Shown piece by piece: positions 28,379-31,999 of a stretch of 64,000 bases of DNA. The position numbers were made by a program, and so were the translations under genes. Numbering within the stretch: the first letter of the stretch is position 1; each line of letters starts with the position of its first letter. Source of the stretch: Chloroflexota bacterium (GTDB lineage Bacteria > Chloroflexota > Limnocylindria > Limnocylindrales > CSP1-4); the NCBI GenBank assembly GCA_012026785.1, contig VEOW01000064.1, forward strand, positions 1,365-65,364. The letters are read 5' to 3'. Under the pieces are notes generated by a model, which saw nothing but the letters and a program-made list of their open reading frames with translations, had not been told where the DNA came from and did no database searches.

Positions 28379-29821
28379 TCACTCCTCGGCGCGAGGCTCC
28401 GGCTGTGTCACGATGAGCTCCCCGGCCGCATCGCTTGGGATGGCTGAGGCCGCAGGTGGCTTTCGCTCGACCAGCCACGCCCACGCCGCCTGCGCTGCCG
28501 CCCCCGCCGCCGCGAAGTCGGATCGACGAAGCAGCAGGGTCTCACTGGCACCCCTTCCGGAGACTCGCAAGAAGACCGCCAGCGTGAGGACGGCGGTGAT
28601 GGAGTAGGAGATCGACGACGCCAGTGCAGCGCCGTTGATCCCGAGTCTCGGAACGAGAAGGATATTGGCGCCGACGTTGATACCCAGGCCGACCAGGAGG
28701 ATCAGGGTTGTCGCCCCCGGCCGGCCCTGGCCTGACAGGTAGCGCGTCAGGACGGCCACGATGCTGTAGGCAATGATCCCGGGGACGATGAACCTGAGTG
28801 CCACGCCGGCATCGGCAAACTGGCTGCCGTAGATGGCCCGCACGAAGTACGGCCCCAGGATGACCGCCGGGACGGCAAGCAGGACAGTGACGGCGACCGT
28901 GGCCCGTGTCAGCAGCGCCGCGACACGCCCCGCGTCCACCCGCGGGTCCACGGCCCGGCTGAACATGACGATCCCGAGGGCGTTGGGGATGTACCAGAGT
29001 GTCTCCGCCAGGCCCGTCGTCACCGAGTAGATGCCCGTTGGGCGTACCCCCACCAGCGCATTGACGATGAAGGCATCGGCTCGAAACTGCAGCCGCTCCG
29101 CGAGCGTTCCGGGCACGGCTCGGGTGCCGAACCCCAACTGTTCCCGAAGCAACGATGCAGATGGCCGGAAGGCGAGGAAACCGCCTGCCTTGGCTGCCAC
29201 TCCGATGGCCAGCCCAGTAACCGCCAGCGCAACGAGGTTGAGCAGGAGCGCGACGTTGAGATTCAGGTGGGCAACGGCAGCGGTTGCGAGGATGAGCACG
29301 AGCAGGGTGGCCCGACGAAGCATTCGAAGGACCGAATAGGCCGCGATCATCCGTCGACCGAGAATGGCCAAGAGAGCCACCGAGAAGAACAGCTCGCCGG
29401 GGATCGCGATTGCCGCGAAGATGAACTGGCGCTCGGACAGGTTCGGGAGCACGGTCGGGAGCAGACCGCTGGGAGGACCGGGTTCTCCCAACCCGTACGC
29501 CCACGCCGACACGAGCATCCCGAAACCGCCCACCACGCTCGTCCAGATGACGGCATTCGCGAAGCCCCGCCGCGCGCTGCCCAGATCCCGACCCGACGCC
29601 ACCGCCAGGGCTTGGTCCATGCCCCAGCCGAGCACGAGGGCCACGAGCTGCGAGTACAGGAGGACGATGGTGAAGCGCCCCTTGGCGGCCGGGCCGAGCA
29701 GCCGCGCCAGCGCGATGTCGGTTCCGAAGATGAGCACCGCGAGGATGAGGCGGGTCGCGATCGTCAGGAGCGCATCCCGCAGGAGGGCCCTCGAGCCCGA
29801 GCTGGCCTCCGAGGAAGCCAT
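28379..29821 (-). CDS. Polysaccharide biosynthesis protein, MOP-superfamily flippase (Wzx-like)
   Basis: 480 aa with about 14 TM segments and an N-terminal LLRDALLTIATRLILAVLIFGTDIALARLLGPAAKG pattern typical of Wzx/oligosaccharide flippases. Confidence 0.85.
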   Translation of the reverse strand: MASSEASSGSRALLRDALLTIATRLILAVLIFGTDIALARLLGPAAKGRFTIVLLYSQLVALVLGWGMDQALAVASGRDLGSARRGFANAVIWTSVVGGFGMLVSAWAYGLGEPGPPSGLLPTVLPNLSERQFIFAAIAIPGELFFSVALLAILGRRMIAAYSVLRMLRRATLLVLILATAAVAHLNLNVALLLNLVALAVTGLAIGVAAKAGGFLAFRPSASLLREQLGFGTRAVPGTLAERLQFRADAFIVNALVGVRPTGIYSVTTGLAETLWYIPNALGIVMFSRAVDPRVDAGRVAALLTRATVAVTVLLAVPAVILGPYFVRAIYGSQFADAGVALRFIVPGIIAYSIVAVLTRYLSGQGRPGATTLILLVGLGINVGANILLVPRLGINGAALASSISYSITAVLTLAVFLRVSGRGASETLLLRRSDFAAAGAAAQAAWAWLVERKPPAASAIPSDAAGELIVTQPEPRAEE

Positions 29822-29825
29822 CCGG

Positions 29826-30800
29826 CTAGTCCGAACCGGAGGCGGCCAGTGGTCGAATTCGGACGAGCTCGGGATCGGCGAGGGCCTCGCGGAACCACGC
29901 TACCGTCGCTGCGACACCGTCCCGAAGAGTCACGCGAGTCTCGAAGCCCAGCTTCGCTCGCGCCTTGTCCACGCGCGCATAGTTGCGCTCTGTATCCCCG
30001 GCACGCGGTGGCGCGTACCGGACCTCCGCTTCCCCGGTGGCCTCTCTGACGGCGTCGGCGAGCTCCGCGACCGTCGTTTCGACCCCCGTTCCGATCTGGA
30101 ACACCTGGCCGCCGACCACGGCAGGGGGTGCCGTGAGGGCCGCCCGGATTCCGGCCGCGAGGTCATCGACGAAGATGAAGTCCCGGGTCTGCTGGCCTGT
30201 CCCATAGACCGTGATCGGCCCACCTTCCAGCACGGACCGGAGCCATGCCGCGACCACGCTCTTCTTGTGCAGTGAGCGTGGCCCAAAGACGTTCGAGAAT
30301 CGAAGCGAGGATGCCGCGATGCCGTACGAGCCGGCATACGCGCTGACGTAGGCTTCGCCGGCCAGCTTCGAGGCGCCGTACGGCGTCGTCGGCATCGGCA
30401 ATGCCTCCTCGTCGAACGGCGGTGCGGCAGGTCCGAGAACGGCGTTCGACGAGGCGAATACGAACCGCTCCACGCCGGCGTGTCGCGCGGCATCGAGCAG
30501 GTGGATCGTGTCCGTGACATTGGCGCGAAAGGTGCCCAGGGGATCCTGGATCGAGTCCGGGATACCCGCCCTCGCGGCCAGGTGGACCACGTCGGTCACG
30601 CCGTCGAGCGCGCCGGTGAGGCTGTCGACCTCGGCGACCCGAGTCTCGATCAGCTCCGCTGGCGTGCCAGCGAGGTAGGCTCTAGAGCCCATCGACAGGT
30701 CGTCAAGGGCCCGAACCCGGTAGCCCGCCGCGACCAGCTGTCGACAGAGCGCGGAGCCGATGAAACCGGCCCCGCCGGTGATCAGGACAGTCCGGCTCAC
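29826..30800 (-). CDS. NAD-dependent nucleotide-sugar epimerase/dehydratase (GalE-like SDR)
   Basis: 324 aa. TGGAGFIGS glycine motif and YGASKLAGE (YxxxK). Its start overlaps the sqdB stop by 4 nt. Confidence 0.9.
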   Translation of the reverse strand: MSRTVLITGGAGFIGSALCRQLVAAGYRVRALDDLSMGSRAYLAGTPAELIETRVAEVDSLTGALDGVTDVVHLAARAGIPDSIQDPLGTFRANVTDTIHLLDAARHAGVERFVFASSNAVLGPAAPPFDEEALPMPTTPYGASKLAGEAYVSAYAGSYGIAASSLRFSNVFGPRSLHKKSVVAAWLRSVLEGGPITVYGTGQQTRDFIFVDDLAAGIRAALTAPPAVVGGQVFQIGTGVETTVAELADAVREATGEAEVRYAPPRAGDTERNYARVDKARAKLGFETRVTLRDGVAATVAWFREALADPELVRIRPLAASGSD

Positions 30801-31999
30801 GTCCTCGCCGGCGCGGCCGCTCGCTTCGCAGCCGGAGCCCGTTCGGGAACCCAGCGGACGTGCTGGACCAGCACCGAGGGATCGATCCGCGAGGCGTGGT
30901 CGCGGATCTTGGCCAGCATCGTGTCGATCAGCTCCTCGTTCAGGAGCCGAGGCTGCAGGCCGAGGTCGATCAGCTTGGAGTGCTTGGCGTTGTAGTAGTG
31001 CTCCTCGCTCTCCTTGCGAGGGTTCTCGGCGTGCGAGAGCTCGACGCTCCAGCCCATGTGCTCAGCGGCTGCCTTGACGCGCTCGGCAAGCTCGAGCACC
31101 GTGAACTGCTCGGTGAACTGGTTGTAGATCCGGAGCTCCCCCGGCTCGGCCGGGTTCGCGGCCGCGAGCTGCACGCAGGCCATCGTGTCGCGAATGTTCA
31201 GGTAGCCCCGGGTCTGGCCGCCCTTGCCATAGACGGTAAGGGGATGTCCGATGACGGCCTGCACGCAGAAGCGGTTCAGCGCCGTTCCGAAGACCTCGTC
31301 GTAGTGGAAGGACGTGGCGAGGCGCGGGTCCAGTGCCGATTCGTCGGTCTCGACGCCGTACACGACGCCCTGGTTGAGCTCGGTCGCCCGCAGGTCCCAG
31401 ATCCGGGTCGCGAAGTGGATGTTGTGGCTGTCGTGCACCTTGGAGAGGTGGTAGAGCGACCCCGGGGTCTTCGGGTACAGGAAGGTATGCGACCTGCCGT
31501 TGTGGTCGACCGTCAGGTAGCCCTCTTCGATATCGATGTTGGGCGTGCCGTACTCGCCCATCGTCCCGAGCTTGATCAGGTGCGACTCGGGCGATTTGTC
31601 GCGAATGGCGAACAGAACGTTGAGATTGCCGACGATGTTGTTCCGCTGGGTGTAGGTCGCGCGCCTGACATCGATCATCGAGTACGGCGCCGATGGCTGC
31701 TGCCCGTAGTGGATGATCGTGTCCGGCCGGAATTGGTCGATCAGCGACTCCACGAAGCCGTAGTCGCACAGGTCACCGATCGCAACCTCGATCTCGCGCT
31801 CGCTGACCTCACGCCACGCCCGAGCCCGCTCGTGCAGCGTCGAGATCGGGAACAGCGGACGGACGCCGAGCTCCAGCTCCCATTGCCGTTTGGCGAAGTT
31901 GTCGACCACGGCCACCCGATGGCCGGCTCGTGAGAATGCCATCGCGGTGGGCCAGCCAAGATAGCCGTCCCCACCGAGGATGAGCACGCGTTGCGCCAT
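30797..31999 (-). CDS. sqdB: UDP-sulfoquinovose synthase (SQD1/SqdB)
   Basis: Track ORF 30797..32353 trimmed to the ATG at 31999 ([22 protein letters not shown]...), with GGGAGAGG just upstream. The diagnostic block is [43 protein letters not shown], and the overall length is 400 aa, as in SQD1/SqdB. Confidence 0.9.
   Translation of the reverse strand: [400 protein letters not shown]

Follow-up and report, generated by a model that had tools for sequence, protein, structure and literature searches.

A sulfoquinovose synthase gene among glycan-export genes of a Chloroflexota bacterium points to a cell-surface use of sulfoquinovose

Sulfoquinovose (SQ) is currently viewed as a phototroph product, in the form of the sulfolipid sulfoquinovosyldiacylglycerol (SQDG), and as a constituent of one archaeal N-glycan. 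A 2026 review of SQ cycling names SqdB-SqdX as the sole route (PMC13436972). In the N-glycan of Sulfolobus acidocaldarius (Agl3/Agl16), a SqdB-type enzyme supplies UDP-SQ to a glycoconjugate that is not a lipid and is assembled on a carrier of the polyprenol type (PMC4388408). Here, we analyse a sqdB gene in a stretch of 64,000 nucleotides (hereafter the window; contig VEOW01000064.1, positions 1,365 to 65,364) from a metagenome-assembled genome (MAG) of a Chloroflexota bacterium (3.77 Mb, 260 contigs, 89% complete). This gene stands among genes for the export of glycans on a lipid carrier, in a genome in which no sulfolipid synthase was recognised, and the combination points to an undescribed use of SQ at the bacterial cell surface. 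Literature searches, covering open-access full text, returned no report of sulfoquinovose or sqdB in a bacterial wall or surface glycan, in a flippase context or in non-phototrophic phyla.

The membrane enzymes of the window have their closest counterparts in other systems. For the group A carbohydrate of Streptococcus pyogenes, GacI and the DUF2304 protein GacJ make N-acetylglucosaminyl (GlcNAc)-phosphate-undecaprenol (Rush et al. 2017, 10.1101/180810). The Wzx-like GacK is the proposed flippase of this lipid, and GacL, a glycosyltransferase (GT) of the GT-C type, transfers GlcNAc to a polyrhamnose backbone that is exported by an ABC transporter and attached to peptidoglycan by LytR-CpsA-Psr (LCP) proteins; fusions of DUF2304 with GacI are known, and Rv3632 stimulates PpgS (10.1101/180810). 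PpgS (Rv3631) with Rv3632 and Rv3779, which act in the addition of galactosamine to mycobacterial arabinogalactan, ArnC/ArnT and GtrA/B/C all follow the same logic: a GT2 enzyme, assisted by a small membrane protein, loads the sugar onto polyprenyl phosphate, and a GT-C enzyme then transfers it outside the cytoplasm.

Like the Gac system, the window encodes a GT2 with DUF2304, a Wzx-family flippase, a GT-C protein, an ABC backbone exporter and LCP proteins. It differs in that DUF2304 and GT2 are fused and in that the flippase gene belongs to the sqdB operon, apart from the GT2. The sugar, GlcNAc in the Gac system, is proposed to be SQ or its epimer, which a dedicated SqdB and a short-chain dehydrogenase/reductase (SDR) would provide. 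Further extras are a UPF0104 flippase-like protein, a secreted glycoside-hydrolase-like protein, a GT4 and a membrane GT2, and the host belongs to the Chloroflexota. With the SQDG pathways of cyanobacteria and plants (SqdB/SqdX) and of Rhodobacter and Sinorhizobium (SqdB/D/C/A), the window shares the first enzyme and its product, UDP-SQ; no SqdX-like GT4 and no GT8 (SqdD) were found in its genome, and the partners of sqdB are of flippase, GT2 and GT-C types. Finally, Agl16, an archaeal GT4, adds SQ on the cytoplasmic side of the membrane, whereas transfer in the window would likely be extracytoplasmic, through GT-C.

We consider it probable that the window holds part of an accessory envelope-glycan island that uses sulfoquinovose by a polyprenol-dependent, Gac-like route, and not for SQDG. 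Our whole account draws on sequence, predicted fold and co-occurrence. The genes of the sqdB cassette are:

30797..31999, minus strand: sqdB, UDP-sulfoquinovose synthase, 400 amino acids (SQD1 alignment, NF041015)
29826..30800, minus strand: GalE-like SDR, 324 amino acids (Pfam Epimerase, 8e-63)
28379..29821, minus strand: MOP-superfamily (Wzx/PST-like) flippase, 480 amino acids (Pfam Polysacc_synt_3)
27433..28284, minus strand: secreted protein, 283 amino acids, with a predicted glycoside-hydrolase-like (beta/alpha)8 barrel (AlphaFold2 model, Foldseek)
26182..27408, minus strand: GT4 (retaining) glycosyltransferase, 408 amino acids (Pfam Glyco_trans_1_4, 2e-32)
24989..26185, minus strand: membrane-embedded GT2 (inverting), 398 amino acids (Pfam Glycos_transf_2, Glyco_tranf_2_3)

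First, we examined the identity of SqdB, whose start is taken as the first ATG within a longer open frame. Residues 3-384 align without gaps with residues 2-383 of Arabidopsis SQD1 (1qrr/1i24; E = 1e-151, about 65% identity). The catalytic residues of SQD1 were defined as Thr145, Tyr182 and Lys186 (PMC4388408), and T146, Y183, H184 and K187 of the window protein align exactly with SQD1 T145, Y182, H183 and K186; its NAD motif GxxGxxG reads GGDGYLG. The NCBIfam model for UDP-sulfoquinovose synthase, NF041015, matches the protein end to end (450.8 bits, E = 4e-135) without reaching the equivalog cut-off of 575 bits. Among the control genomes, the model matched in Synechococcus elongatus and Sulfolobus acidocaldarius, and just one of these two passed the cut-off. 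Since the cut-off thus looks tuned to a single lineage, the shortfall is no argument against SqdB function. The gene is present as a single copy in the genome, and independent gene calls on 11 other contigs gave the same 400- and 324-residue products for SqdB and the SDR. These comparisons confirm the identity of SqdB as a genuine UDP-sulfoquinovose synthase, with an activity that is predicted.

Neighbouring cassette genes either overlap by 4 nt or are separated by 4-94 nt. The SDR gene is translationally coupled to sqdB, its GTG start sharing GTGA with the sqdB stop, and the membrane GT2 and GT4 genes also overlap by 4 nt. A consensus scan of the operon strand, uninformative for this phylum, returned no internal promoter or terminator. 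A preliminary description of this DNA had reported a 400-residue product carrying the SQD1/SqdB block of 41 residues, its stop overlapping the SDR start, followed by a MOP flippase, a secreted hydrolase-like protein, a GT4 and a GT2. All these elements were found again here, as were the LCP ligases and the many GT-C enzymes that it placed in the wider cluster (two LCP genes, four GT87 genes and a PIG-V-like GT-C).

This gene order is conserved. Among the sqdB loci of species-representative genomes (numbered L below), of which the best 80 of more than 595 were compared, the SDR gene directly follows sqdB in 16 Chloroflexota loci, the flippase gene comes next in 15, and the GT4 and membrane GT2 genes then follow in 14. 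Identities to the window proteins are 52-63% for the SDR, 52-71% for the flippase, 37-56% for the GT4 and 53-74% for the membrane GT2. The SqdB proteins of the cassettes, including that of the window, form a single clade (support 100/99), and synteny with L004, from a Limnocylindrales MAG, extends across eight genes. All SqdB sequences most similar to that of the window (73-85% identity) belong to MAGs that carry the label Chloroflexota, Chloroflexia or Candidatus Limnocylindrales. Each gene of the cassette likewise has its closest relatives in Chloroflexota MAGs and not in Actinobacteria.

Among the products, the SDR has its best PDB matches in GalE-type 4-epimerases acting on UDP-Glc, UDP-GlcA and UDP-GalNAc, and stays below the galE equivalog cut-off (169 versus 262 bits). 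Orthologs adjacent to sqdB in Acidobacteriota and Acidimicrobiia are 44-53% identical to it, and its paralogs in its own genome at most 36%. The sqdB-adjacent orthologs of three phyla (44-63%) are thus closer than its own paralogs, which hints at a dedicated role. The flippase scores 29.3 bits with Polysacc_synt_3, against a cut-off of 23 bits, and matches MurJ and MATE more weakly; it is on this basis that we place it in the MOP superfamily. The cassette GT4 matches GT4 profiles in its C-terminal, donor-binding half only. Its best NCBIfam matches are the polysaccharide GT4s stp2, EpsE and TuaC, and with the Agl16 model it scores 32 bits, against a cut-off of 575 bits. In the PDB, the membrane GT2 matches best the entry 6yv7, which was deposited as 'Glycosyl transferase, family 2'. 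The secreted 283-residue protein has no sequence match in Pfam, NCBIfam or the PDB. Its AlphaFold2 model (pLDDT 93) has GH99, GH10, GH5, GH158 and Cwp19 as top Foldseek matches (E = 3e-8, TM about 0.59), Glu120-Pro121 is nearly invariant, and relatives are encoded near the cassette in L007, L008, L010 and L015. The model indicates a clan-A-like glycoside-hydrolase barrel, as is common in polysaccharide operons.

We also searched the genome for enzymes that could make SQDG. GT8 (PF01501) has no match in this MAG, with its 89% completeness, and was detected in five control genomes; the SqdD-type, alphaproteobacterial route thus appears to be absent. For SqdX, the reference was the GT4 encoded divergently to sqdB in L062, an inferred proxy. 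The SqdB of this locus groups with Arabidopsis SQD1, and the best profile matches of its GT4 are lipid GT4s (GlcN-PG synthase, MshA and Mgs). The proxy has 1,882 relatives, with generic source names; among those with 65-100% identity are MAGs bearing the names Chloroflexaceae, Oscillochloridaceae and Roseiflexaceae, all phototrophic lineages. The best match to this proxy reaches 28% identity in the genome under study and 30-33% in five other cassette genomes. Enzymes of the GT2 family invert the configuration of the sugar and cannot make the alpha-linked SQDG.

The second half of the argument concerns a module that converges with the cassette, the stop codons overlapping at 24989-24992. It consists of three genes in one operon, with a fourth gene divergent to them:

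23943..24992, plus strand: DUF2304::GT2 fusion of the polyprenyl-phosphate sugar synthase type, with the architecture of GacJ-GacI and Rv3632-PpgS (Pfam DUF2304 and Glycos_transf_2)
21967..23907, plus strand: predicted GT-C fold membrane glycosyltransferase, 646 amino acids (AlphaFold2 model, Foldseek)
19997..21970, plus strand: polytopic membrane protein, 657 amino acids, with a C-terminal extracytoplasmic domain (no family match)
18911..20053, minus strand: UPF0104/LPG_synthase_TM flippase-like membrane protein (Pfam, 6e-34; TIGR00374 'flippase-like domain')

In the fusion, a single open reading frame (ORF) encodes DUF2304 (residues 6-106) and Glycos_transf_2 (residues 124-283). Its best NCBIfam match is PpgS, of which it is not an equivalog (103 bits versus a cut-off of 370 bits); AglJ comes second, likewise below cut-off. 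The DUF2304::GT2 proteins linked to sqdB (32 with that of the window, from two phyla) form one clade (92/76), apart from the three paralogs in the genome. In about 27 Actinomycetota loci, in at least four arrangements, a homolog is encoded within a few kb of sqdB. Its gene overlaps or abuts the sqdB stop in L053, L081 and L068, and a PMT_2 GT-C gene stands between the two in L026. A full-length ortholog was found in 10 of the 11 other cassette genomes (43-65% identity) and, where it could be located, lies about 10-30 kb from sqdB or nearer, flanked by homologs of the 657-residue, 646-residue and UPF0104 proteins. Among 25 genomes of the same genus, it is absent from 22, two others have just weak partial matches (41% identity), and G023 alone has a true ortholog. 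This co-occurrence and adjacency suggest that the donor of the DUF2304::GT2 may be UDP-SQ.

The 646-residue protein, encoded directly upstream of the DUF2304::GT2, has no Pfam match, and among its homologs are proteins that contain PMT_2 or go by the name GT39. Its AlphaFold2 model (pLDDT 84, pTM 0.89) was compared with the PDB using Foldseek, and the top 27 matches are all GT-C enzymes (STT3/AglB, AftA, ArnT, ALG9/12, Emb). Orthologs adjoin the GT2 in L004 and L096. Across 17 homologs, the first outside loop (residues 130-162) contains the invariant or nearly invariant residues W130, Y131, Y132, E151 and W158-L159-P160-D161-Y162. E151 and D161 are candidate catalytic acids for this family, which has no Pfam model. 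The 657-residue protein is possibly a second transferase; homologs (25-40% identity) are encoded near the DUF2304::GT2 in six other cassette genomes. Profile comparisons revealed no similarity of the 646-residue family to the 657-residue protein, nor to the 650-residue protein encoded downstream of the sqdB-GT2 pair in L081. Homologs of the UPF0104 protein (39-65% identity) adjoin the module of GT2 and membrane proteins in L093, L095, L098 and L102. The window encodes two candidate flippases for a sugar-phosphate-polyprenol, the MOP and the UPF0104 proteins.

Further components of the envelope cluster and of sulfur assimilation are:

4426..7848, minus strand: WbaP-type phosphoglycosyl transferase and ABC-2 exporter, candidate backbone machinery (Pfam Bac_transf, 7e-68; ABC2_membrane; ABC_tran)
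12882..15385, plus strand: two LCP glycopolymer-peptidoglycan ligases (Pfam, NCBIfam)
16834..18036, plus strand: YeiH-family putative sulfur-oxyanion transporter (Pfam PF03601, 1e-44)
18129..18896, plus strand: cysH, adenosine 5'-phosphosulfate (APS)/3'-phosphoadenosine 5'-phosphosulfate (PAPS) reductase (NF002537, 270 bits, above cut-off)

In the route that we favour, SqdB would convert UDP-glucose and sulfite into UDP-SQ, the sulfite coming from CysDN and from CysH, whose gene is 12 kb from sqdB. UDP-SQ, or a 4-epimer made by the SDR, would then be directed to polyprenol-dependent glycosylation and not to diacylglycerol. The DUF2304::GT2 would use it to form beta-SQ-phosphate-polyprenol at the inner face of the membrane; from UDP-alpha-SQ, a GT2 gives a beta-linked phosphate-polyprenol, which is the usual type of GT-C substrate. 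Outward flipping would be carried out by the Wzx-like MOP protein of the cassette, in the manner of GacK, or by the UPF0104 protein. Outside the membrane, the GT-C protein or proteins would transfer SQ to a wall polysaccharide. Its construction would fall to other members of the cluster, the WbaP-type primer, GT4 enzymes and the ABC-2 exporter, and the LCP enzymes would ligate it to peptidoglycan. To the cassette GT4 and membrane GT2 we assign no firm role; they probably make or lengthen a lipid-linked acceptor or side chain, and the secreted barrel probably trims the product. Such a pathway would yield an anionic (sulfonated) wall glycan, free of phosphate and different from strain to strain. 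The SQ-phosphate-polyprenol donor is favoured because all part types of the Gac system are in the window, and because the DUF2304::GT2 and GT-C genes travel with sqdB, which makes a flipped repeat unit less likely. The Chloroflexota version is distinguished by an additional conserved operon (sqdB, SDR, MOP flippase, GT4, membrane GT2) coupled to the GT2/GT-C module.

We also put forward, more tentatively and with somewhat less than even confidence, that polyprenyl-phosphate-sulfoquinovose, or its 4-epimer with 6-sulfo-6-deoxygalactose formed through the SDR, is a real intermediate for the GT-C sulfoquinovosylation of a peptidoglycan-linked wall polysaccharide. The resulting phosphate-free anionic polymer would occur in non-phototrophic Chloroflexota and, through the same pair of genes, in many Actinomycetota, as a possible stand-in for teichoic acid and as an unrecognised non-photosynthetic source of SQ in soils and wastewater sludge. 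If true, this would add a new donor, a C-sulfonate sugar-phosphate-polyprenol, to systems of the Gac, Gtr and Arn types, and a sulfonated, phosphate-free anionic wall polymer to monoderm bacteria. It would also provide the SQ degraders of soil, sludge and sediments with SQ sources other than photosynthesis, and sqdB alone could not be used as a marker of SQDG producers.

Several observations weigh against the route that we favour. The DUF2304::GT2 lies 5.8 kb from sqdB, on the opposite strand and outside its operon, and the cassette GT4, membrane GT2 and MOP flippase could alone build an SQ-glycolipid or a repeat unit. The cassette genome G045 has no DUF2304::GT2 ortholog; conversely, in G023 the GT2 is present and sqdB was not detected, which may be a loss from the assembly since the contig of G023 begins inside the cassette. 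The absence claims are soft, as the organism is uncultured and its MAG incomplete. The SqdX reference is not a curated SqdX, and its choice rests partly on what we take to be the N-terminus of SqdX. CysH being the sole genome copy, its proximity to sqdB is possibly coincidental. Lastly, what speaks for expression is weak evidence: in one biofilm metatranscriptome, small near-perfect contigs cover sqdB, the flippase, the GT4, the two genes for large membrane proteins and cysH, but DNA may have been carried over into this RNA run.

The main alternative, in which SQ is transferred in the cytoplasm, appears unlikely. The cassette GT4 or membrane GT2 would add SQ to a polyprenyl-diphosphate oligosaccharide, which the MOP protein would flip as Wzx does, before polymerisation or ligation to peptidoglycan by LCP enzymes, and the DUF2304::GT2/GT-C module would serve another sugar. 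Such a route agrees with the tight operon of sqdB, SDR, MOP flippase, GT4 and GT2 genes, conserved in at least 14 loci, with the polysaccharide GT4 profiles matched by the cassette GT4, with the WbaP-type primer and LCP ligases of the window, and with the occurrence of sqdB and an SDR gene in a canonical Wzx/Wzy locus (L028). However, no member of a Wzy or O-antigen-ligase family was found among the ORFs scanned (14327-48216), and the sole priming transferase is 17 kb away, beside the ABC exporter. Nor does it explain that genes of the DUF2304::GT2 family accompany sqdB in two phyla and directly adjoin it in Actinomycetota. The preliminary description had suggested for sqdB a role in an exported, polyprenol-linked envelope glycan and not in SQDG. 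This much is supported by gene order, by the accessory spread of the cassette and by the lack of a SqdX-like GT4 or of a GT8; the flipped repeat unit that it proposed as the route is less likely, no Wzy polymerase and no cassette-linked primer having been found.

That the product is instead a membrane glycolipid is still less probable. A divergent GT4 would synthesise SQDG, or the membrane GT2 and the GT4 would together form an SQ-hexosyl lipid, and the MOP protein would bring the product to the outer leaflet, to act, for instance, as an anionic lipid that spares phosphate or as a glycolipid anchor. SqdX and SQD2 do belong to GT4, phototrophic Chloroflexota contain SQDG, the membrane GT2 has weak matches to the lipid glycosyltransferases GT21 and HpnI, and the cassette has no polymerase. 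The preliminary description had kept SQDG open because the GT4 at 26182-27408 is of the same broad family as SqdX. In our GT4 tree, for which the SqdX reference is the inferred one, the cassette clade and the SqdX-like clade are split with 100/99 support and separated by long branches, and the similarity of the cassette GT4 to GT4 profiles stops at the donor-binding half. Moreover, MOP/PST flippases are known for polyprenol-linked substrates and not for glycerolipids, presence in two of 26 genomes of the genus would be unusual for a core membrane lipid, and the setting is a cluster of LCP, GT-C and ABC-exporter genes for wall glycans.

Finally, the idea that SqdB acts in vivo as an ordinary 4,6-dehydratase or epimerase, giving a 6-deoxy or 4-keto sugar to the cluster, can draw on SQD1's formation of UDP-4-keto-glucose-5,6-ene without sulfite (PMC4388408) and on the missed NF041015 cut-off, but it is highly improbable given the gap-free SQD1 match with all catalytic residues including the histidine, an RmlB model score of just 46 bits, the archaeal tuning of NF041015 and the recurrence of YeiH-type transporter or CysDN/PAPS reductase genes beside sqdB in other loci.

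With regard to sulfur supply, cysH is the only copy in the MAG and cysDN is on contig C250. CysH is probably a housekeeping enzyme for this reason, and we rejected it as a sulfite supplier dedicated to the cluster. Orthologs of the YeiH protein (68-76% identity) are encoded inside or beside the cassette in L008, L010, L012, L015 and L099, and the window copy is 13 kb away from sqdB. The transporter may take up a sulfur oxyanion for SqdB or keep its level in balance.

Within the genus, the cassette is accessory. At the protein level, sqdB was found in none of 24 genomes of the genus; G041 has sqdB and SDR sequences at 72% DNA identity on a 3.4-kb contig, which brings the cassette to two of 26 genomes. 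On its upstream side lies:

32140..34003, no strand assigned: DUF4143 fragment (114 amino acids) and abiEii/abiEi pair (Pfam AbiEii, AbiEi_4)

DNA conserved in the genus resumes only at about 34095, past the AbiE pair and the truncated DUF4143 gene, and this segment looks like the edge of an accessory island. At least eight metagenomes, of bioreactor, biofilm and activated-sludge origin and produced by several studies, contain DNA identical to that studied here. The genome G051 apparently has two sqdB cassette copies on separate contigs (L010 and L099), in one of which yeiH is inserted between the GT4 and membrane GT2 genes. In L014 (genome G054), a sqdB of the cassette clade has no SDR, flippase, GT4 or GT2 neighbours, and this genome also lacks a DUF2304::GT2 ortholog.

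Sister clades of SqdB are encoded in surface-glycan loci as well (L028, L055 and L040). In an Acidobacteriota MAG, L028 (4644-16761) has the composition of a canonical Gram-negative exopolysaccharide locus, with Wza-like (SLBB), Wzz/GNVR, sqdB, SDR, MurJ-like flippase, Wzy and GT4 genes, and Acidobacteriota may thus make SQ-containing exopolysaccharides. In L055 (7051-13573), from a MAG of Candidatus Falkowbacteria in the candidate phyla radiation, the genes for a PAPS-reductase-like protein, CysD, CysN, SqdB and NeuB share one strand and are adjoined by a WbaP-type primer; its gene content suggests that this glycan locus has a sulfite supply of its own, connected to sqdB. A NeuB or cytidylyltransferase gene accompanies sqdB in L040, and Rhodospirillales loci likewise combine sqdB with NeuB- or cytidylyltransferase-type genes.

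Elsewhere in the envelope cluster of the window, the region 38899-41706 encodes a membrane protein of the sulfatase superfamily (Pfam Sulfatase, E = 4e-7), together with a protein that combines an Acetyltransf_6 (GNAT) domain with a Mig-14 match. Lastly, contig C22 of the genome carries, at about 4100-12300, genes for a paralogous membrane GT2 (36% identity), a GT4 and an SDR (36% identity) without sqdB. From this set, the architecture of the cassette may be modular, with a different sugar for each copy.

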